A DNA stretch of 64,000 nucleotides from IMG/VR virus record IMGVR_UViG_2897358383_000002. One strand, 5' to 3'. Under the pieces are notes generated by a model. The model was not told the DNA's origin, made no database searches, and saw nothing but the letters and a program-made list of their open reading frames with translations. A program made the position numbers and the translations under genes. The stretch is from a virus. Lineage: Duplodnaviria > Heunggongvirae > Uroviricota > Caudoviricetes. Positions 738 to 10,915 of the stretch are shown here, piece after piece (the stretch's first letter is position 1; each line of letters starts with the position of its first letter).

Positions 738-3725
738 ATGAGCTTAAGCGATCAGGTGGTAATGGCCACCAGCATAGAAACGCTGATCGAGCTGCTAAAG
801 AACCTGCCCGATTATGGGCGGGTTTCGTATGTGGTGACAGCGAAGGGAGACGAGGTAAAAACAGCGTTTGATATCGTCGATGCCTCAGCTCTTTTGGTAT
901 CCAATACTCTGGATGGGAAAATTAATCCTGACTATCCCCAGGAACTTCAGCCGCGCGACCGGACCCGCGCATCCAGCCTTCTTCAGGTTAACCAGATATC
1001 CAAAGATTTGCGGCCAGCTCAGCTTACTGATTCCGGTTTATCCAGCCATGGTGCGCCGATAATTGGTGAGGACAATGCCGTTGAGTCAGGTAATGGACGG
1101 ACCATGGGGATCATCAAAGCCTATCAGGACGGCAATGCGGATCGGTATCATGAGTACCTGATTGAACATGCGACCGAATTCGGCATACCTCCTGAAAAGG
1201 TTGAATCAATGACGGCTCCGGTACTGGTGCGCCGCCGGTTAACTAAGGTTGACCGCGTTCAGTTTGCCAAGGACTCAAATATTTCTGATCTTCAGGAAAT
1301 GGCAGCCAGTGAAAAAGCTTTTGTTGATGCCGACAGCATAACACCGGCGATGATGGCGCTTTTTAACCCGTCAGAAAGCGGAGATCTGCTTAGCCGCAGT
1401 AATGACGCGTTTATTCGCGGATTTATGACGCAAGTTGGTGCCACACAGGCGGCTGGCCTTGTAACTGAAGATGGGCGACCAACACGGCAACTTGTAGACC
1501 GTATACAAAACGCGATCTTTGCCAAGGCATATAAGGATGCGCGCCTGGTAAGGATGGTTGCAGAAGAACCTGATCCGGATATGCGTAATGTTCTGACGGC
1601 GCTTAATGCGGCAGCCAATGATTTTGTCCAGATGCAGGCTTTATCAGGAGAAGCGCACAAGCAGGCTGTGACAACTATTGTTGATGGCATTGAGACAGCA
1701 GATAGCCTCGATAAAATGGCGCTGGCGGCATTGAAAGATGCGGTAGACCTGGTAAGGCAATCGAAGGAGTCAGGCCAGCATATTACCGATGTTATTGCTC
1801 AGGGGGATATGTTCAGCGAAACGGCCCCGGAAGTGAAAGCACTCGCGTTGTTCATCGTCGCGAATAACCGTAGCGCGAAGCGTATGGCCACCGCCTTTAA
1901 GTTGATGGCTCAACGTATCAATGATGAGTTACAGCACCAGGGCCAGGCGCTGGGGGATATGTTTGGCGGCGGCGATGTGTCGTTACAGGATATCCTTCGC
2001 CAGGTGTCTCAGGAACTGGAAAACGAAGGCATGCAAGGGATATCCGGCGGTCTTTTCGAGTCCGTTTCCGGCGGTAGTTACAACGGTGTTGCTCCGTATA
2101 CCAGTTTGCTATTACATCGGGCATCCGGCATCAAAGACATTATTCATCTGATCAGGCTGCTTTCCCGCACAGATCCCCAGGATGAACAGCTTGTACAAGT
2201 GCTTGCGCATTTTGTTCGAATGCCTGTTGCCGACGTGAAAAAATGGTGCCGATTATTCGGTATCAGCAATTCGTTACTTCGCGGCTTGTTAAATCACGCA
2301 TCCTCCCTTGGGCGCGATGGCTTTGACGAGATAGCGCAGGCGATAAAAAACGGAGATATGCCACCAGCTATTGACTGGTTTTCCATTCGCCCAACCAGGG
2401 TGAAAGCATTCCTTAGCGCGGCGCATTCGGCATCACCATTGGCAGAAATGGTTCAGAGGTTGTCGCTCATATTCACAGACCATACCGCGTTGGGTGATCT
2501 GACTCTGGACGAGATGAAAGAAGCCTCCATTCAGTGGGCCGATCAACAAAATGAGGTTAACTCAGACTTCTTGCCAGCATTCAGGAAGGCCGTTAGTAAA
2601 GCGGATGATGCCCGTGGAATTCTGAAGGCATTTAAGGCATTGCAAAGTCGTGTTAATAAACATGTCGGTGATATCGATGGGGTAACGGCGGAAGGCCGGG
2701 ATATCCTTAAAGAGCACGGCATAACGCCAGAGTTTATTGATGAGATCAGGACTGATATGCAGCGTGAGGTCGTATCGTCCCTGCAAATCGTAGCCAGAGC
2801 GTTGGCGGATGCTAATCCGAAGAGTGCGGCCATTGTTAACCGGGTTATTGGTGATATTGAAGCATCGGAGGGCATGGGGGCGCTGAAACTCTTCCTTTCG
2901 CGAGCGTTTAATCCTAACGGCAATATTCTCCCTGGCATTATTGGTGAGGCTAAAAGGTATGTCAGTGAAGAAGAACTTGAGCAGCTTGACCAACTACTTA
3001 AGCGATTCTCATATAACCCGCAGACACGCTGGCAAATGAATCAGCAAAGTATGGGTTCGGTCCACGAGAAAGTGTTATCTGCCATGAACAGTGCGATTGC
3101 CAACTCATCCGTATCTGAAGAAAAAGCTCTTGAGTGGGCCGACTCTTTTATCACGGAAGAAGTGGAAGAAGCCCGCGCTGGACAGAATGGTGGAATAGAC
3201 CTGCGCAAGGAACTTGCTGATATTTATCGCCTGACCGGCGGGAAAATATCAACCTTATCAAGGGTAATTCACCACAAGGGTAGGGCGTATGCAAATCTTA
3301 ATGGTGTTGTTGCTGTCAATTTGAACGATGAAAATGCAAGTGCACTGTGGCACGAGCTGGGTCATCATCTTGAGTACAGTAACCCTGGTTTGTTAGAGAA
3401 AGCCCGGTCATTCCTGAAGGCCAATGTTGAAGGGGATAAGCCATCTTTCGTCAATATCGGTGGGCGTGGCAAGCCTGAATGGTGCTTCAGATCTCGATTG
3501 AGTAATATTTATATGGCGAAGGTATACCCGCCAGCCTCAGTAAGTAACACCGGGAAAATTCGGCAGAAATCACCGACTATTTCCAAAACGTCAGCAACGG
3601 AAGTATTCTCTATGGCTCTTCAGTTGTATCATGACAAAGAGGCCGCTGCCGCATCACTGATGAATGGTGACGGATTGCTGGAACTGTTATTAGGTGTGGC
3701 AAAGGAGCTAAATAATGCAGATTAA
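738..3725 (+). CDS. large 995-aa protein, DdrB-like by size and position; carries an HEXXH motif (HELGHH) and a possible ParB-like motif (QPRDRTRA) near the N-terminus
   Basis: ORF track; motifs read in translation; P1 darA-operon context recalled from memory. Confidence 0.5.
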   Translation: MSLSDQVVMATSIETLIELLKNLPDYGRVSYVVTAKGDEVKTAFDIVDASALLVSNTLDGKINPDYPQELQPRDRTRASSLLQVNQISKDLRPAQLTDSGLSSHGAPIIGEDNAVESGNGRTMGIIKAYQDGNADRYHEYLIEHATEFGIPPEKVESMTAPVLVRRRLTKVDRVQFAKDSNISDLQEMAASEKAFVDADSITPAMMALFNPSESGDLLSRSNDAFIRGFMTQVGATQAAGLVTEDGRPTRQLVDRIQNAIFAKAYKDARLVRMVAEEPDPDMRNVLTALNAAANDFVQMQALSGEAHKQAVTTIVDGIETADSLDKMALAALKDAVDLVRQSKESGQHITDVIAQGDMFSETAPEVKALALFIVANNRSAKRMATAFKLMAQRINDELQHQGQALGDMFGGGDVSLQDILRQVSQELENEGMQGISGGLFESVSGGSYNGVAPYTSLLLHRASGIKDIIHLIRLLSRTDPQDEQLVQVLAHFVRMPVADVKKWCRLFGISNSLLRGLLNHASSLGRDGFDEIAQAIKNGDMPPAIDWFSIRPTRVKAFLSAAHSASPLAEMVQRLSLIFTDHTALGDLTLDEMKEASIQWADQQNEVNSDFLPAFRKAVSKADDARGILKAFKALQSRVNKHVGDIDGVTAEGRDILKEHGITPEFIDEIRTDMQREVVSSLQIVARALADANPKSAAIVNRVIGDIEASEGMGALKLFLSRAFNPNGNILPGIIGEAKRYVSEEELEQLDQLLKRFSYNPQTRWQMNQQSMGSVHEKVLSAMNSAIANSSVSEEKALEWADSFITEEVEEARAGQNGGIDLRKELADIYRLTGGKISTLSRVIHHKGRAYANLNGVVAVNLNDENASALWHELGHHLEYSNPGLLEKARSFLKANVEGDKPSFVNIGGRGKPEWCFRSRLSNIYMAKVYPPASVSNTGKIRQKSPTISKTSATEVFSMALQLYHDKEAAAASLMNGDGLLELLLGVAKELNNAD

Positions 3726-4023
3726 AATCGCAGCGCCATTAGGTGGAGATGCCATTATCGAATTTGATGATAATGAAGAAGTTTCCGGGCGTTTAAGCAT
3801 TATCTCCGGTGACATTACCGAGGACATGATCGCTGAAGCCATAGCTGGAGCAAATCCCAATAGCTATATGGGATTCGTTAACACCCTTGATGCTCCCGCA
3901 AGTGATGTTCTCCGAACGCTGCATCTTTACGCTGGCTGGTTTGTTGATTGGCCAGCAGTAGATGGTGGCGATGAGGACGACGACGATGATTTGGGTGATC
4001 ATGTGGATCAGTTTGTATATTAG
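3715..4023 (+). CDS. hypothetical 102-aa protein with acidic C-terminal tail (DGGDEDDDDD)
   Basis: ORF track; overlaps the stop of the upstream gene. Confidence 0.4.
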   Translation: MQIKIAAPLGGDAIIEFDDNEEVSGRLSIISGDITEDMIAEAIAGANPNSYMGFVNTLDAPASDVLRTLHLYAGWFVDWPAVDGGDEDDDDDLGDHVDQFVY

Positions 4024-4229
4024 ATACTAACAGATCGTCTATGTGGCTAGAATCGTTCGAGTTTAGCGATTAACGGAAGTTCTGGTCGATTATGATTAGT
4101 GCATATTCATGCACAGGCACACAAAATCTGGAGATATTGATCAGCGTTTATGTATAGTTTGTAATATAAAAATCGCCTTGAACGGAGTTTGTGCGTTATG
4201 AGAATCAATCTTAACTCTGGAGTAAGATA

Positions 4230-4598
4230 GTGGACGCTTTGTCTGAGGTTTTCGTTAATAATTGGCTTCCTGGTATCTGCACATTTTTTTTAGGTATCTT
4301 TTATTCTAATATTGTTGAAAAAAAGAAACTTAAACAGAAGTTAAAGAATGATATTCTTGAGATATTCATTCCTGTATTTAACGCCGGAAATGAAATCTCC
4401 ATTGAAATTGCTGAGAATGCTTACAGGAATATGAATGGTACGTTTCAGTTGTACAAGAGAATATATCCAGGTATGTTCAACAAAGAAGCAGAGCGTGAGC
4501 TAGACCGACTACTAAAAGACGGTTTCCTCATAAATGGAGAGGTTAATAAGCATTACTTTGAACCAACTAATATTGAGAGCCTGATTAAAAGATTATAA
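4230..4598 (+). CDS. hypothetical 122-aa protein with N-terminal hydrophobic segment; GTG start; AT-rich islet
   Basis: ORF track; GGAG 9 nt upstream of GTG; TM-like stretch WLPGICTFFLGIFY; hairpin terminator follows. Confidence 0.4.
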   Translation: MDALSEVFVNNWLPGICTFFLGIFYSNIVEKKKLKQKLKNDILEIFIPVFNAGNEISIEIAENAYRNMNGTFQLYKRIYPGMFNKEAERELDRLLKDGFLINGEVNKHYFEPTNIESLIKRL

Positions 4599-4615
4599 CT
4601 CATTTACCACAGTTA

Positions 4616-4639
4616 AAACCCCGCTTCATTGCGGGGTTT
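4616..4639. terminator. hairpin aaaccccgc-ttcatt-gcggggttt between convergent genes
   Basis: perfect 9-bp stem seen in sequence; T-run on the minus-strand side. Confidence 0.5.
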
Positions 4640-4805
4640 GCATCATGCGCCAATAAAAGCTATTTATTCTGCGTCAAGTTGTAACATCTAATCCACTATT
4701 ATATATCGTTATGTTTGGCATATAACAGATAATTAAATGAATTATATCCAGATCTAATTTTATGCGGTTCTGGAACCCGGCTACGTACTATATAATAGAA
4801 AAAAA

Positions 4806-6260
4806 TCAGAGTCTATCAAAAATAGAGCCTTTTCTCGGTACAAATATTTTCTCATACAGTCGAGTAGCGTAATCATCTGTCATGCCTGAAACATAGTCGC
4901 AAATGACACGCATTTTTTTATCATCACCTTTTGCTTCCTCTTGATTATATTTCTTTCGAGTTTCTGTCGGGAGAAAACGTATTGGGTCATTTGCCAGTAC
5001 ATTGAATAGTTCCACAATCAGTTTCTGACCTTTGAACTCTAATAGTTGGACGTTTTCGTGCTGAATAACTTTGTTCCTAACCAGCTCAAAAATGGCTTTA
5101 CGTAACTCTTCTACCGCGGCAGGAAGTGCCACTTTATAGCGTAAAATTTTACTTTTGAAATCAGAGTTCTGCACTTCAAGCTTAACGCTAGTGATCATCA
5201 GATGAACAAGTGTCCCTATGCACTCCTTGCGTAGATAACTTTCGCCGAACAGTTTTTCAGCTACATCATCGGCTTTTAGATTAAACGAGTCGCATTGGCA
5301 AGCTGCAAATAAATGGGATTTGTCCTCGAAGTGCTCCTCCCACATTTTTTTGTCGATCATCTTCAGAGAAATTGCGTCTTCAAGATCATGGAGTGAGTAG
5401 GATATCTCATCAGCCAAGTCCATAATCGTTGTATCCAGTGCTTTATATATTGTTTCCTTGTGCTTATTCAACGCGGTAGTTTTTACCGTTTTGAATAACT
5501 TAACATCATCACTATCAAAAGGTTGGAGTGCGAATCTAACAGTGTTCTCCTCAGAGTCCAGGTAACATTTCGGGGGCTTAAATTCGGATGATTTAAACAA
5601 CCACTCATTGCTTCTTGGCTGTAACTGGCTGTAAGCCCTCTCATTGACGACCTCTGAATAGCTTGCTGGATATTTCAGTACGCCTAAAATAAGTCTACGG
5701 GTGGGATCCAGCCCATTGGTTTCGGTGTACTTATCCAGTTTGGAGAGTATACGCAGTGTCTGCCCGTTACCTTCAAAGCCGCCATAGGATCTCATGCAGT
5801 AGTTTAGTGCGACCTCACCACCATGACCGAAGGGGGGATGTCCTATATCATGAGCAAGGCAGATAGCCTGCATCAGGCTTGGGTCAGGTAAGAATTTACC
5901 CCCCTCATCTGTATCGCGCTTAGACAACTGAGACAAGATACCGCCGCCAATTTGCGCTACTTCCATAGAGTGAGTTAGCCGCGTACGGTAGAAATCGCTT
6001 TCGCCCAATCCCAACACCTGCGTCTTCGATTGTAATCTCCTAAAAGCGGAAGAGTGGATTAACCGGGAAAGATCACGTTCATACTCCGACCTTATCTCAT
6101 TCGGGCGGGTGGTATTGTACCCTTGACGCTCATACCAAGTATTTTCTTTGCAGTGTGTCATACGTGTTCCTTTGGGCAGGATAGAGCAAGTCGCCTGCTT
6201 AATTGCTGAAGAAAGAAATACAAATTTGTAACGCTGTGGATCTTCTTTATGCATCCACAA
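4806..6260 (-). CDS. dGTP triphosphohydrolase-like HD-domain protein (Dgt family), 484 aa
   Basis: motifs RTRLTHSMEVAQIGGG and LAHDIGHPPFGHGGE typical of dGTPases; AT-rich gene between backbone genes. Confidence 0.8.
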   Translation of the reverse strand: MWMHKEDPQRYKFVFLSSAIKQATCSILPKGTRMTHCKENTWYERQGYNTTRPNEIRSEYERDLSRLIHSSAFRRLQSKTQVLGLGESDFYRTRLTHSMEVAQIGGGILSQLSKRDTDEGGKFLPDPSLMQAICLAHDIGHPPFGHGGEVALNYCMRSYGGFEGNGQTLRILSKLDKYTETNGLDPTRRLILGVLKYPASYSEVVNERAYSQLQPRSNEWLFKSSEFKPPKCYLDSEENTVRFALQPFDSDDVKLFKTVKTTALNKHKETIYKALDTTIMDLADEISYSLHDLEDAISLKMIDKKMWEEHFEDKSHLFAACQCDSFNLKADDVAEKLFGESYLRKECIGTLVHLMITSVKLEVQNSDFKSKILRYKVALPAAVEELRKAIFELVRNKVIQHENVQLLEFKGQKLIVELFNVLANDPIRFLPTETRKKYNQEEAKGDDKKMRVICDYVSGMTDDYATRLYEKIFVPRKGSIFDRL

Positions 6261-6341
6261 TCAGTAAATATTGGATACTTGCAAGGTGCGCGAAACACTA
6301 AAGATTGTCAATTAATAATTAACACCTCTTATAGTTACTAG

Positions 6342-6369
6342 AAATAAAAATCCCCTGTATTAACAGGGG
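6342..6369 (-). terminator. rho-independent terminator downstream of ssb (cccctg-ttaata-cagggg followed by U-run on minus strand)
   Basis: hairpin plus T-run read on minus strand. Confidence 0.6.
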
Positions 6370-6409
6370 CCTGTGTATGAACTATTTACAAATAACTCAC
6401 AAGTTAACT

Positions 6410-6898
6410 CTAAAACGGAATATCGTCGTCAAAGTCCATTGGAGGTTCGTTATTGGCGCTGCTCTGAGGTTTGCCGCCACCGCTGTATTGCTGGTGGTTT
6501 TGAGGTTGGTTTGATTGCCCCCAGCCATTTGAGGACTGTGAATCGTCGCGGCGGGCGCCGATCATTTGCATAGTTCCGCCCTGGCTGACGATAATTTCCG
6601 TCGTGTAACGTTCTACACCGGCGTCATCTGTCCACTTACGGGTTTTAAGTTTCCCTTCGATGTAGACCTGAGAACCTTTTCGTAAATACTCACTCGCAAT
6701 TTCAGCAAGTTTCCCGAACAAAACGACTCTATGCCATTCTGTTTGCTCTTTCTGTTGGCCCGTTTGCTTGTCGCGCCATGATTCATTCGTTGCGATGCTG
6801 AGTCTTCCGACCGCTCCGCCATTTGGTATATACCTGATCTCCGGGTCTTGCCCCAGGGTACCAATCAGGATGACTTTGTTTACACCGCGTTGTGCCAC
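6410..6898 (-). CDS. ssb: single-stranded DNA-binding protein
   Basis: N-terminal OB-fold sequence [23 protein letters not shown]..., Gly/Gln-rich linker, C-terminal DDDIPF tail. Confidence 0.95.
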
Positions 6899-6934: not shown

Positions 6935-7067
6935 AATGTATATCTTTGAAACGTAGCTAACAAGTGATTTGCATTATCCTGTGCCTTCTAAAGGGATCGA
7001 GTCAGTCGGTATTGGCTGTGAATGGGTGTTTGTCCTGGAGCGTAAAAAATTCGCTTATGAGGTCTTT

Positions 7068-7625
7068 ATGAAGGGAAAAACAGCCGCAGGAGGCGGTGCA
7101 ATTTGCGCTATCGCGGTGATGATTACCATCGTGATGGGTAATGGCAATGTGCGAACCAACCAGGCGGGGCTTGAGCTGATTGGTAACGCTGAAGGTTGCC
7201 GACGTGATCCATACATGTGCCCGGCGGGGGTATGGACTGACGGGATCGGTAATACACACGGGGTAACGCCGGGTGTGCGAAAAACCGACCAGCAAATCGC
7301 CGCTGATTGGGAAAAGAATATCCTGATCGCTGAACGCTGTATTAATCAGCACTTCCGGGGCAAAGACATGCCCGATAATGCCTTCAGTGCAATGACAAGC
7401 GCGGCATTCAATATGGGATGCAATAGCTTACGGACCTACTACAGCAAAGCGCGAGGCATGCGAGTAGAAACGTCCATCCACAAGTGGGCGCAGAAAGGGG
7501 AATGGGTGAATATGTGTAACCATCTCCCTGATTTCGTGAACAGTAACGGCGTGCCCCTGCGAGGTTTAAAGATTCGCCGTGAAAAAGAACGCCAGCTTTG
7601 CCTGACGGGGCTTGTCAATGAATAA
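7068..7625 (+). CDS. lyz: SAR endolysin, T4-lysozyme-like (P1 Lyz-like), 185 aa
   Basis: start moved to MKGKTAAGGGAICAIAVMITIV (signal-anchor-release helix) with GAGG RBS; lysozyme core follows. Confidence 0.85.
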   Translation: MKGKTAAGGGAICAIAVMITIVMGNGNVRTNQAGLELIGNAEGCRRDPYMCPAGVWTDGIGNTHGVTPGVRKTDQQIAADWEKNILIAERCINQHFRGKDMPDNAFSAMTSAAFNMGCNSLRTYYSKARGMRVETSIHKWAQKGEWVNMCNHLPDFVNSNGVPLRGLKIRREKERQLCLTGLVNE

Positions 7626-7874: not shown

Positions 7875-8585
7875 GAGAACCCCGGCAGCTGCCGGGGTTA
7901 TTTTTGTGCACAGAAAACCCCCAGCTAGGCTGGGGGTTCCGGAAAGCTTTCAGCTTTAAGCCAGTTATTAAAACCCCTTTTGATTTGTTAAAACACCTTG
8001 CGGTCTGGCAACTGCAAGTGTCAAACAAGAAATCAAAAGGGGGTCCCAATGGGGAACGAAAAGAGCTTAGCGCACACCCGATGGAACTGTAAATATCACA
8101 TAGTTTTTGCGCCAAAATACCGAAGACAGGTGTTCTACAGAGAGAAGCGTAGAGCAATAGGCAGTATTTTGAGAAAGCTGTGTGAGTGGAAAAGTGTACG
8201 GATTCTGGAAGCTGAATGCTGTGCAGATCATATCCATATGCTTGTGGAGATCCCGCCCAAAATGAGCGTATCCGGCTTTATGGGATATCTGAAAGGGAAA
8301 AGCAGTCTGATGCTTTACGAGCAGTTTGGTGATTTGAAATTCAAATACAGGAACAGGGAGTTCTGGTGCAGAGGGTACTACGTCGATACGGTGGGTAAGA
8401 ACACGGCGAAGATACAGGATTACATAAAGCACCAGCTTGAAGAGGATAAAATGGGAGAGCAGTTATCGATTCCCTATCCGGGCAGCCCGTTTACGGGCCG
8501 TAAGTAACGAAGTTGGATGCAAATGTCAGATCGTGTGCGCCTGTTAGGGCGCGGCTGGTAAGAGAGCCTTATAGGCGCATTTGAA
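7875..8585 (+). mobile_element. IS200-like insertion sequence (boundaries approximate)
   Basis: left-end perfect palindrome aaccccggcagctgccggggtt and a second stem-loop before the RBS; tnpA inside; about 710 bp. Confidence 0.6.
8049..8507 (+). CDS. tnpA: IS200 Y1 (HUH) transposase TnpA, 152 aa
   Basis: MGNEKSLAHTRWNCKYHIVFAPKYRR...HIHMLVEIPPK matches IS200 TnpA as I recall it; start moved to internal ATG at 8049. Confidence 0.9.
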   Translation: MGNEKSLAHTRWNCKYHIVFAPKYRRQVFYREKRRAIGSILRKLCEWKSVRILEAECCADHIHMLVEIPPKMSVSGFMGYLKGKSSLMLYEQFGDLKFKYRNREFWCRGYYVDTVGKNTAKIQDYIKHQLEEDKMGEQLSIPYPGSPFTGRK

Positions 8586-8621: not shown

Positions 8622-9641
8622 TTATTTAAACGGATTGATTGAATTATTAAACGTGATGATGCTTGTCTCACGCGGTGCCTGGACGTTAGCCGCTTGCGGA
8701 ACCTCCTTAATTTTCTTGGTGACAGGCAAGTTGCGTGCGCCAACTTTGATCAGAGATTCGAAAAGTGTGGCAACGATTTTTGCATCACCAGGTTCTTTGA
8801 GGCGGAATGCGTCTTTTTGGGCGGCGGAGACGAAGATCGGGAGGTTATCCAGTTCGTCTTGCATTGCTGCCAGCACATCGTCGCGGATACCCGCTGTTTC
8901 CTCCAGCAAAGCGATTCGCGCTTCAGCATCTGCGATCTTGGCCATTGCTTCGAGGTGGCGGCCCTGGCTTTCGAGTAGTGCAGTTTCCAGTTCTGCCGTA
9001 CGCTCTGTCGCCTCCACCATCATTTCCAGTTCAGCCATTTTGCCGTAATGGGATATAACGGCCTGCACTGACTCGTCGGAGTACCCATGCGCCGCCAGGG
9101 ACTCTGCCAGTAAAGATTTAGAATCCGCGCTTTCAAACATTCCGGCGCTGGCAGGATGATCCAGACTGATATAGTTCGGCGTTGTCACATAATCCACACC
9201 ATGGAAGCTGGTGGTTACAGCGATTTTCCCGGACTCACGCCCGCCAGTGGCCCAGCTCCAGCCACCAGCTCGGCTTTCGATCATCGCGGCGACAATTTTA
9301 CCCGGCTCTGTGTTAAGAATTTCCTGTGTATGGGTAACGATGCCGTTGTCGTCAACGGATATAGCCACTGTGCGGCACGCTGGAACATTGTCGATTACGA
9401 CCGGGCGACCTTCCACCATGATTACGCTGGTTTCTGGTACTTCCAGTTTGCCGGTCAGCTGTCGGCGACCGTGACCGTAATAGCCGAAAAGCTCTCCAAG
9501 GCGTAAACCTTCCTGAGTTTCCTTGCTTTCAAGCATGGTCTTAACCGCGCTTAATACATACTGTCGCCCGTTCTGGCGACCTTTTCGAGCATTGCTATAG
9601 AGACAAAAGCGGTCAGTGACCGTTTTCAAAACATCAGTCAT
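8622..9641 (-). CDS. putative head maturation protease/scaffold (Pro-like), 339 aa, with C-terminal coiled-coil
   Basis: ORF track; position next to portal-like gene and darB as in P1 (from memory); no diagnostic motif confirmed. Confidence 0.4.
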   Translation of the reverse strand: MTDVLKTVTDRFCLYSNARKGRQNGRQYVLSAVKTMLESKETQEGLRLGELFGYYGHGRRQLTGKLEVPETSVIMVEGRPVVIDNVPACRTVAISVDDNGIVTHTQEILNTEPGKIVAAMIESRAGGWSWATGGRESGKIAVTTSFHGVDYVTTPNYISLDHPASAGMFESADSKSLLAESLAAHGYSDESVQAVISHYGKMAELEMMVEATERTAELETALLESQGRHLEAMAKIADAEARIALLEETAGIRDDVLAAMQDELDNLPIFVSAAQKDAFRLKEPGDAKIVATLFESLIKVGARNLPVTKKIKEVPQAANVQAPRETSIITFNNSINPFK

Positions 9642-9659: not shown

Positions 9660-10915
9660 CCTTACCTAATGTCTGTTGGTATATTGGCTTTGATAACATT
9701 TTCGTCCGTGTATTCATTTATATACTCATTAGTTTCAATGTATTATATAGAACATGAAGCGTGCCTATAAATATCGATTCTATCCAACTCCCGAACAAAC
9801 CGAGCTATTAGCCCGGACTTTTGGGTGTGTGCGTTTTGTCTATAACAGCCTCCTTCGCTGGCGCACCGATGCGTACTACGCACGCCATGAGAGGGTCGGC
9901 TATGCACAAGCCAGCGCCAAATTAACGGCACTGAAAAAAGAACCAGAATTCGCTTGGCTGAATGACGTTTCCTGCGTCCCCCTCCAGCAGTCTCTGCGCC
10001 ACCAACAAACGGCTTTTGCTAACTTTTTCGCCGGGCGTGCTGCATACCCAGTTTTTAAGAGCAAGCGGCATAAACAGGCCGCAGAACTAACTGCCAGCGC
10101 ATTTAAATACCGTGACGGCAAGCTGTACATGGCAAAGAGCAAAGAGCCGTTAGATGTTCGCTGGAGCCGTCCGTTGCCGTCTGCTCCATCCACTGTCACT
10201 ATCACCAGGGATGCTGCCGGACGATATTTTGTATCCTGTCTCTGCGAGTTTGAGCCTGTATCACTGCCGATCACCGTTTCCACGGTCGGCATTGATATTG
10301 GTTTAAAAGATTTGTTCGTCACCGATACCGGTTTTAAAACTGGCAATCCTCGACACAACGCTAAATACGCGAAGCGATTAGCAGTGTTACAGCGCAGATT
10401 GAGCAAGAAACAAAAAGGCTCAAAGAACCGCGCCAAAGCACGTTTAAAGGTTGCCCGCCTCCACGCGAGAATAGTCGATTGTCGGATGGATAACCTGCAT
10501 AAGTTGTCCCGCAAACTGATTAACGAAAACCAAGTTGTTTGCGTCGAATCCCTTAAAGTGAAAAACATGATCCGTAACCCGAAGCTGTCTAAAGCAATAG
10601 CTGACGCAGGCTGGAGCGAACTTGTACGCCAACTCCAGTACAAAGGAGAATGGGGTGGACGTAGCATTGTCGCTATCGACCAGTATTTCCCTTCTTCCAA
10701 ACGTTGCAGCAGTTGCGGCTTCACCATGCAAAAAATGCCTCTTAATATTCGTAAATGGCACTGCCCGGAATGTGGCGCAGAGCATGATCGTGATATTAAC
10801 GCGGCCCGTAATATAAAAGCTGCCGGGCTGGCAGTGTTAGCCCTTGGAGAGTCTGTAATTCCTAAGCCGCTTCATGTGGTTTAGGTCGGACTCTGTGAAT
10901 TGGGAATGTTTGCCG
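9660..10915 (+). mobile_element. IS605-family tnpB-only element (IS1341-like); ends not defined
   Basis: TnpB gene wedged between two head genes on the opposite strand. Confidence 0.4.
9754..10884 (+). CDS. tnpB: TnpB (OrfB of IS200/IS605 family; RuvC-like nuclease with C-terminal zinc finger), 376 aa
   Basis: N-terminal YRFYPTPEQ motif; C-terminal CSSCG...CPECG zinc finger. Confidence 0.9.
   Translation: MKRAYKYRFYPTPEQTELLARTFGCVRFVYNSLLRWRTDAYYARHERVGYAQASAKLTALKKEPEFAWLNDVSCVPLQQSLRHQQTAFANFFAGRAAYPVFKSKRHKQAAELTASAFKYRDGKLYMAKSKEPLDVRWSRPLPSAPSTVTITRDAAGRYFVSCLCEFEPVSLPITVSTVGIDIGLKDLFVTDTGFKTGNPRHNAKYAKRLAVLQRRLSKKQKGSKNRAKARLKVARLHARIVDCRMDNLHKLSRKLINENQVVCVESLKVKNMIRNPKLSKAIADAGWSELVRQLQYKGEWGGRSIVAIDQYFPSSKRCSSCGFTMQKMPLNIRKWHCPECGAEHDRDINAARNIKAAGLAVLALGESVIPKPLHVV

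Follow-up and report, generated by a model that had tools for sequence, protein, structure and literature searches.

What is an AT-rich segment carrying a dGTPase gene doing beside ssb in a P1-like phage-plasmid, and how did it get there? In the 64,000-nucleotide stretch of DNA analyzed here (hereafter the window), a preliminary description had singled out positions 4,024–6,409, between a dar-type operon and ssb, as an AT-rich islet with its own terminators, a dGTPase gene and a convergent second gene. GC content averages 0.479 over the window but 0.397 in this islet, a value this low occurs in only 0.06% of 2,386-bp sliding windows, and the GC minimum of the whole window falls inside it; the composition of the islet is foreign. 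Homology to the P1, P7, and SJ46 backbone ends at the stop codon of hxr (about 4,022) and restarts at the stop codon of ssb (6,408–6,412), so the boundaries originally proposed are exact, and the 2.4-kb islet occupies precisely the gap between these two stop codons. On the left, ddrB (738–3,725) is followed by hxr (3,715–4,023, plus strand), the final gene of the darA/ddrB operon, whose product is identical or near-identical to Hxr/OdaA of P1, P7, and SJ46. The right flank is formed by a P1-type ssb (6,410–6,898, minus strand; Pfam SSB, 137 bits; 98.8% identity to P1 Ssb). Its stop codon is the insertion point and reads TAG in the window versus TGA in P1, P7, SJ46, and K-12.

Comparison of this junction with P1 and P7, as the preliminary description had proposed, and with SJ46 revealed that the same interval holds other cargo: isaB-IS1-isaA in P1, a porin gene in P7, and isaA plus a hypothetical gene in SJ46. 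The islet itself is 99–100% identical in 51–52 PLSDB plasmids and on at least 63 plasmids of E. coli (63 complete genomes), and the plasmids that bear it come from many hosts and countries. Carriers account for about 51 of the approximately 508 P1-like plasmids in PLSDB, or about one in ten. Given this frequency and the foreign composition, the gene is not the universally conserved, backbone-like feature that the preliminary description had named as evidence against its proposal; the islet is accessory. The novelty implied there did not survive. RefSeq already annotates the protein as an anti-phage dGTPase, and a 2025 preprint surveying such elements found dGTPases to be common on E. coli P1-like phage-plasmids. 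The presence of a dGTPase on P1-like phage-plasmids is thus real, yet already known and ordinary.

The dGTPase had been described as a 484-residue HD-domain protein. Its identity as an HD-domain dGTPase holds, and both quoted motifs (RTRLTHSMEVAQIGG and HDIGHPPFGHGGE) are present, but the length does not stand. We rejected the 484-aa open reading frame with a TTG start (4,806–6,260, minus strand) as the true protein, since the real coding sequence (4,806–6,161, minus strand) comprises 451 aa, starts with an ATG at 6,161 preceded by the ribosome-binding site AAAGGAA, and has limits identical to those of the 451-aa RefSeq protein WP_000148486.1. The additional 33 residues are read-through of non-coding DNA upstream of this ATG, where the 5′ remnant of an integrase gene overlaps them in a different frame. 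Together with a 58-bp leader, the gene forms a module at 4,802–6,219. The protein contains the Pfam domains HD and HD_assoc and matches NCBIfam NF041026 ("anti-phage deoxyguanosine triphosphatase") with 571 bits over model positions 1–425 of 425, for which the cut-off is 400 bits; the PADLOC dGTPase model (PDLC02374) scored 495 bits (E = 5e-149).

The best match in the PDB is 9P8W, the Shewanella Sp-dGTPase (E = 3e-158, ~58–60% identity), a crystallized enzyme that defends against T7 and hydrolyzes dGTP by itself. The alignment shows conservation of H64, H104-D105, H113, E116, and the LADEISY motif, with H104-D105 corresponding to H100-D101 of Sp-dGTPase, in which the D101A substitution abolishes defence. 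The protein also shares 81% identity (79% at the nucleotide level) with the dGTPase of the E. coli chromosomal yjcB-ssb island, which in turn matches the E. coli G177 enzyme with 97.7% identity over the first 133 aa of the latter, the part available. The G177 dGTPase is one of the four dGTPases shown to be protective by Tal et al. (2022), and identity between the window protein and G177-type enzymes amounts to ~81–85%. In addition to belonging to the same curated HMM family, the window protein resembles the dGTPases of Tal et al. in length, in its HD and H/E catalytic residues, in being encoded by a single gene, with no conserved neighbour among its relatives, and in its location in mobile or defence-island DNA, here a variable cargo slot of a phage-plasmid. 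It differs in that it is known from sequence and lies on a P1-like phage-plasmid, whereas theirs are chromosomal or part of a type I RM operon. The window protein belongs to the anti-phage dGTPase family of Tal et al., in line with the earlier remark that dGTPases are established nucleotide-depletion antiphage effectors, and by analogy with these relatives it is predicted to act as a dGTP triphosphohydrolase.

Two other groups of HD-domain dGTPases were considered. Clover combines the dGTPase CloA with the nucleotidyltransferase CloB and likewise depletes dGTP through an HD-domain effector. We rejected membership in this system: there is no adjacent CloB nucleotidyltransferase, the only neighbours being ssb and the convergent 122-codon gene (orf122), the protein resembles CloA only weakly and in part (E = 2e-24, N-terminal 150 residues), and its nearest structural match, Sp-dGTPase, is a hexamer without a partner. 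Housekeeping E. coli Dgt and human SAMHD1 share HD-domain dNTP triphosphohydrolase chemistry with the window protein. However, the latter is an accessory rather than a core gene product and scores only 142 bits against the Dgt equivalog model NF003429 (PRK04926), far under its cut-off of 405 bits, so that we also rejected it as a housekeeping Dgt. This comparison bears on the idea that the enzyme serves the biology of the phage itself, either by adjusting dNTP pools, as Dgt does, to maintain the plasmid-prophage or to modulate mutation rate, or by favouring lysogeny. Housekeeping Dgt influences mutation rates, and the dGTPase gene adjoins ssb, a replication gene under C1 control. Nevertheless, a protein that fails the housekeeping model and passes the anti-phage one, that occurs in only ~10% of P1-like plasmids, whose nearest characterized relatives are defence enzymes within defence islands, and whose slot carries Avs4 and AbiGi in other alleles makes such a role improbable.

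The second gene of the islet offers another alternative, namely a two-gene system in which orf122 encodes a membrane-bound sensor or regulator required alongside the dGTPase. The convergent 122-aa open reading frame does exist (4,230–4,598, plus strand) and lies in a module of its own (4,174–4,701) with its own upstream region and a downstream hairpin. Its description as membrane-anchored is correct only insofar as the protein has a moderately hydrophobic N-terminal helix, with a Kyte-Doolittle maximum of 1.39. The product is a real conserved protein that falls in a gammaproteobacterial family of 127–132 aa and unknown function; Pfam, NCBIfam, and PADLOC returned no match, and PHROGs returned only its own unknown-function family. 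An AF2 model is helical (pLDDT 77) and has no significant match among PDB folds (best E = 1.3). Adjacency to the dGTPase gene and joint travel of the two at 99–100% identity in ~50–60 plasmids would suit a partnership, but each module has ~79%-identical homologues elsewhere without the other gene. At 78.5% identity, the orf122 module matches a chromosomal locus without a dGTPase, the E. coli chromosomal dGTPase locus lacks orf122, and none of 80 loci of dGTPase relatives has orf122 within 6 kb. Relatives of orf122 in Salmonella, Yersinia, and Marinomonas sit in unrelated island contexts, and a search of homologue neighbourhoods for a common theme found none beyond mobile DNA. Furthermore, validated members of the dGTPase family function as single genes.

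The arrangement of the two genes is also informative. Between them lies a GC-rich hairpin (4,616–4,639), likely a bidirectional terminator, with folding energies of −18.1 kcal/mol on the plus strand (z = −3.6) and −18.8 kcal/mol on the minus strand (z = −2.8); it was not called by a consensus scan because its T tracts are short. Convergent orientation and this hairpin mean that the genes do not form an operon. An AT-rich spacer (4,702–4,801, GC 0.30) separates the two modules, and another (4,024–4,173, GC 0.35), with a weak promoter-like site at 4,129–4,158 upstream of orf122, lies next to hxr; homology searches against element-bearing loci (see below), and for the hxr-side spacer also against the other loci compared, found no counterpart. 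We conclude that orf122 is a separate hitch-hiking gene and not a dGTPase partner. The suggestion that it is co-required thus appears unlikely, and the two-gene system less probable still than a role in phage biology.

How the dGTPase reached this slot is indicated by the 190 bp beside ssb (the arm; 6,220–6,409, minus strand). Wherever an intact integrative element sits behind an ssb gene, be it chromosomal ssb1, the ssb of IncF plasmids, or a P1-like ssb, the DNA following that gene resembles the arm, with 72% identity overall and ~90% in the last 70 bp. In all cases the joint falls at the same nucleotide, with the ssb stop codon changed from TGA to TAG and followed by AGAGTTAAC. The element end joins chromosomal, IncF, and two P1-type ssb alleles, and the polymorphisms particular to each allele persist as far as the joint. 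The arm also supplies ssb with a canonical intrinsic terminator (6,352–6,369, minus strand), which consists of CCCCTGTTAATACAGGGG followed by a T-run (−12.9 kcal/mol, z = −3.7) and is kept in all element-bearing loci; together with the hairpin at 4,616–4,639, it bears out the terminators attributed to the islet. The intact element encodes three tandem recombinase-like proteins (415, 512, and 677 aa), of which the first alone scores above the Pfam threshold for Phage_integrase, plus a 139-aa open reading frame; we found no description of such an element in the literature searched. The islet retains only ~30 nt of the 5′ end of the first integrase gene (6,220–6,251), its start codon lost, and is therefore a remnant rather than a member of the element. 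The arm is what decay has left of one end of this element, whose target is the ssb stop codon.

Intact copies show what the element can carry. One sits at the P1-like ssb of pR15_MCR-1 with Avs4 and AbiGi as cargo, and the element is present in at least three further P1-sized plasmids. The E. coli yjcB-ssb defence island (integration hotspot 39), where a dGTPase occurs with Detocs or Gabija, is also built on it. As in the islet, the island is directly downstream of ssb with the same element end at the stop codon, and the dGTPase, which adjoins Gabija there, has the same orientation relative to ssb. By contrast, the island spans 18–26 kb and has kept its recombinase genes intact alongside several defence systems, while the islet measures 2.4 kb, lacks recombinases, and shares 72–79% DNA identity with it. 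In pR15 and in the chromosomal island, the distal junction carries a copy of the ssb-end core. In the window, the hxr side shows no recognizable ssb-end core repeat, att-like repeat or element end, and a search around the islet for direct or inverted repeats (att or IS footprints) yielded only short chance matches; the right-hand junction is thus the sole basis for the delivery route. The direct donor was not found, as the arm (72%) and the dGTPase gene (79%) have diverged from the E. coli chromosomal copies, and the loci of the closest species-representative dGTPases (Yersinia vastinensis, 80%; Dickeya, 68%; Proteus, 67%) have no ssb, arm, or orf122 within 6 kb. A relative of this element probably delivered the dGTPase cargo.

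A scan for minus-strand sigma-70 promoters upstream of the dGTPase gene returned no convincing site, and across the scan as a whole, promoter counts did not exceed those expected from shuffled sequence. Transcripts extending from the C1-controlled ssb promoter would need to cross the ssb terminator. That the dGTPase is an inactive relic, an unexpressed or decaying passenger of a degraded island, would accord with the loss of the recombinase genes, the lack of a clear promoter in the scan, and the split annotation of the gene in one phage record (ON470615.2), but is highly unlikely, as the reading frame is intact with all catalytic motifs, conservation reaches 99–100% over ~60 plasmids of many hosts and countries, and the split, which we rejected as a real pseudogene, stems from the loss of single bases in homopolymers (G6 and C6), a typical sequencing error.

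What was observed is that the dGTPase belongs to its family and keeps the catalytic residues, that the islet is accessory, that orf122 is independent, and what the arm and its joint are. We consider the islet best explained (probability of about 0.85) as accessory defence cargo in the variable hxr-ssb slot, its active part being a single-gene, SAMHD1-like HD-domain dGTPase, with orf122 as a hitch-hiker and an origin in a recombinase-bearing element. By analogy with characterized homologues, a lysogen would produce the dGTPase, which would respond once an incoming lytic phage perturbs the cell; for T7, the cue for characterized dGTPases involves modification of the host RNA polymerase by phage proteins. 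The triggered enzyme would convert dGTP to deoxyguanosine and triphosphate, and the loss of dGTP would starve the DNA replication of the invader, thereby protecting both the host and the resident prophage. The cargo most likely arrived with a relative of the ssb-stop-codon element, whose recombinase genes would have been deleted later, an order of events that we infer. What remains is the 190-bp element end, including the ssb terminator, joined 58 bp upstream of the dGTPase start.

A bolder proposal, on which we are evenly divided, is that the undescribed three-recombinase element uses the stop codon of any ssb, with the conserved coding sequence of the C-terminal tail, as its attachment site and so shuttles defence cargo between replicons, the islet being its fossil. 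If so, the element would move dGTPase, Avs4, AbiGi, and Gabija genes among chromosomes, conjugative plasmids, and P1-like phage-plasmids, and its hops would be recorded by swapped ssb-end footprints at element junctions, the chromosomal-type CCGTTCTGA in a phage-plasmid and the P7-type CCATTTTGA in a chromosome. As a corollary, P1-like phages would somehow have to replicate lytically despite their own dGTP-depleting enzyme.

For P1-like phage-plasmids, our findings mean that the hxr-ssb slot holds interchangeable cargo of benefit to the host, including a porin, mcr-1, Avs4, AbiGi, and the dGTPase. A validated type of nucleotide-depletion defence therein rides a transducing phage that moves among Escherichia, Salmonella, and Klebsiella, which is relevant to phage therapy and to prophage-mediated exclusion while adding no new mechanism. 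The sole fresh angle is the route of acquisition through an element targeting the ssb stop codon, which links a chromosomal defence hotspot, the ssb genes of conjugative plasmids, and the phage-plasmid slot.

The window is a P1-like phage-plasmid whose 3500-7000 stretch shares 99.9-100% identity with phage vB_EcoM-673R5 and plasmid p50579417_1. The genes run in the order ddrA, ddrB (738-3725, +), hxr (3715-4023, +), orf122 (4230-4598, +; 122 aa), the dGTPase gene (4806-6161, -; AAAGGAA ribosome-binding site), ssb (6410-6898, -), and lyz, with hxr and ssb forming the left and right flanks of the slot. Because homology to P1, P7, and SJ46 stops at the hxr stop codon and restarts at the ssb stop codon, the islet limits proposed in the preliminary description, 4024-6409, are exact. 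The suspected AT-richness was borne out as well: the hxr-ssb stretch has a GC content of 0.397 vs. 0.479 for the window and constitutes the GC minimum of all 64 kb at the 2.4-kb scale, with 0.06% of sliding windows being equally low. The islet also carries the terminators attributed to it, namely a hairpin (4616-4639; either strand folding at about -18 kcal/mol), which separates the convergent orf122 and dGTPase genes, and a canonical terminator after ssb (6352-6369, -). Beyond ssb, the mechanical lyz ORF (6969-7625) begins at a TTG and encodes 218 aa, against 185 aa for the annotated lysozyme, whose RefSeq start is equivalent to about window position 7068; the extra stretch of the ORF overlaps the ssb/lyz promoter-operator region. 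An IS200/IS605 tnpA (7998-8507) and a TnpB RNA-guided endonuclease gene (9754-10884) bracket the head-processing gene pro (8622-9641); these two insertions are separate events relative to P1.

The islet had been described as encoding a 484-aa HD-domain dGTPase, an enzyme class with established antiphage effectors. Family and domain held, but the length did not: the true coding sequence specifies 451 aa and starts where RefSeq places it, while the TTG-started 484-aa ORF was rejected since its extension reads through upstream non-coding DNA. Pfam detected HD and HD_assoc domains, the PADLOC dGTPase model scored 495 bits, and the NCBIfam model NF041026 "anti-phage deoxyguanosine triphosphatase" scored 571 bits (cut-off, 400). 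A housekeeping Dgt identity was rejected, as the Dgt model yielded 142 bits against a cut-off of 405. The closest solved structure (9P8W; E 3e-158, ~58-60% identity) is Sp-dGTPase of Shewanella putrefaciens CN-32, a hexamer that hydrolyses dGTP unaided and mounts strong defence against T7. Of the six dGTPases that Tal et al. cloned, four gave E. coli protection. In the same study, Sp-dGTPase drained the dGTP pool of T7-infected cells, its D101A substitution abolished defence, and escape mutations arose in T7 proteins modifying host RNA polymerase. The window protein retains H64, H104-D105 (equivalent to H100-D101 of Sp-dGTPase), H113, E116, and the LADEISY motif. Identity between the window protein and a dGTPase from an E. 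coli chromosome (locus L004) is 81%; the L004 protein in turn shares 97.7% identity, over the 133 residues available, with the enzyme of E. coli G177 validated by Tal et al. Given these HMM scores, the structure match, the catalytic residues, and the G177-type identity, every feature testable in silico was found, and the protein is assigned by sequence to the anti-phage dGTPase family; its dGTPase activity and phenotype are predicted accordingly. The phage sequence ON470615.2 matches the window except for single-base deletions at G6, C6, and G3 runs (window positions 5832, 5899, and 6993), which split its dGTPase annotation and probably that of lyz; these are likely sequencing errors rather than marks of pseudogenes.

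The convergent 122-aa ORF had been described as membrane-anchored and as a possible co-required partner of the dGTPase. The ORF is real, but its supposed anchor is an N-terminal helix that is just moderately hydrophobic. Five residues near the N-terminus (IKGIF), kept in nearly all homologues, are missing from the window copy, leaving it a shorter hydrophobic helix. orf122 belongs to a family of conserved 127- to 132-aa proteins in Salmonella, Enterobacter, Yersinia, Vibrio, Marinomonas, and Rheinheimera (55-86% identity), and together with its own flanks (4174-4701) it matches, at 78.5% identity, a dGTPase-free locus on an E. coli chromosome. The Salmonella homologue lies within an integrase/anti-restriction island, that of Yersinia adjoins large polymorphic-toxin-like genes, and that of Marinomonas sits amid metabolic genes; none of the three has a dGTPase beside it. 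Conversely, orf122 was found at none of 80 loci around dGTPase relatives. Its AF2 model (pLDDT 77) shows a bundle of helices and gave no significant match in fold comparison. orf122 is an independent passenger, and its co-requirement is unlikely.

The hxr-ssb slot differs in content among P1-like relatives. It holds isaB-IS1-isaA in P1, an nmpC/ompC porin in P7 and many plasmids, isaA plus a hypothetical gene in SJ46, and DUF2829-type genes in other plasmids. In pR15_MCR-1 it holds ISApl1-mcr-1-pap2, an ompC/nmpC porin, AbiGi, Avs4, and an intact recombinase element; this P7-like phage-plasmid has a slot of ~17 kb vs. 2.4 kb in the window, the accumulation being visible in two of its segments (L101, 9440-17501; L100, 1-12071). 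Of ~508 PLSDB plasmids with P1-type flanks, 51-52 share the dGTPase islet at 99-100% identity, and among 5,426 complete E. coli genomes, 63 have plasmids that carry it. The find is correct but already known, since PGAP calls the gene "anti-phage deoxyguanosine triphosphatase" and a 2025 bioRxiv survey (10.1101/2025.09.12.675607) reports CapRel or dGTPase systems to be common on E. coli P1-like phage-plasmids. A literature search found no experimental work on this particular protein.

By comparison with other loci, the islet resolves into a mosaic of an unassigned spacer, the orf122 module (4174-4701), a second unassigned spacer, a dGTPase module (4802-6219) 79% identical to the gene of the chromosomal yjcB-ssb island, and a 190-bp arm (6220-6409) matching DNA right downstream of chromosomal ssb1. 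The arm has counterparts in ~470 E. coli chromosomes (72% identity overall, ~90% over the final 70 bp). In strains with such DNA, three overlapping recombinase-like genes, encoding 415, 512, and 677 aa, come after ssb1, together with a 139-aa ORF; a Phage_integrase domain is clear in the first of the three products and weak in the second. This element recurs at 99.8% identity downstream of IncF plasmid ssb and is found after the P1-type ssb of pR15_MCR-1 too, there carrying Avs4 and AbiGi. It adjoins an ssb in about 35 plasmids, including at least four of P1 size whose ssb is P1-type. Besides the window remnant, it spans 798-6190 of comparison locus L006, 1141-4071 of L018, 14877-20269 of L099, and 6679-12071 of L100. 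Its defence cargo comprises Avs4, AbiGi, Gabija-like genes, and dGTPase.

We placed the element joint by aligning seven ssb 3' ends. The ssb genes keep their own polymorphisms up to ...CC(G/A)TT(C/T)T, and in all element-bearing ends the element sequence, AGAGTTAAC..., starts at one shared nucleotide, a pattern that indicates site-specific insertion rather than homologous exchange. The ssb stop codon, the exact insertion point of this integrative element, is converted at the joint from TGA to TAG, as in the window. The far junction of the ~11.9-kb pR15 element holds chromosomal-type CCGTTCTGA (L101, 15380-15400), and P7-type CCATTTTGA marks the chromosomal island at its far end (L004, ~5480-5500, reverse strand); these apparently swapped cores suggest footprints of past hops between replicon types. 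We found no published account of the element beyond the "mobility genes" of the yjcB-ssb island, and its remnant may be the one new detail here.

The VREC0761 chromosomal island, the counterpart of the published yjcB-ssb defence island (hotspot 39), runs ssb, recombinases, Gabija-like genes, further genes, dGTPase, and yjcB, and its dGTPase points the same way with respect to ssb as the window gene does. In the simplest history, to which we give a probability of roughly 0.6, a diverged relative of the element would have inserted at the phage-plasmid ssb stop codon, and an internal deletion would then have taken out the recombinase genes, leaving ~30 nt of the 5' end of the first integrase fused 58 bp ahead of the dGTPase. 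This route is one that we infer, because the hxr side of the islet has no recognisable element end or repeat and a search among species representatives did not find the donor.

The preliminary observation is confirmed and, with the exception of the part assigned to orf122, its interpretation as defence is supported. The dGTPase is intact and conserved, belongs to a single-gene defence family that has been validated, and is carried on accessory DNA. A promoter scan found no clear promoter for the gene; that of the neighbouring ssb is under C1 control. The enzyme would be produced in the lysogen and, upon infection by a lytic phage, would be activated or simply sufficient; by hydrolysing dGTP, it would prevent the invading phage from replicating, to the benefit of host and resident phage-plasmid alike.
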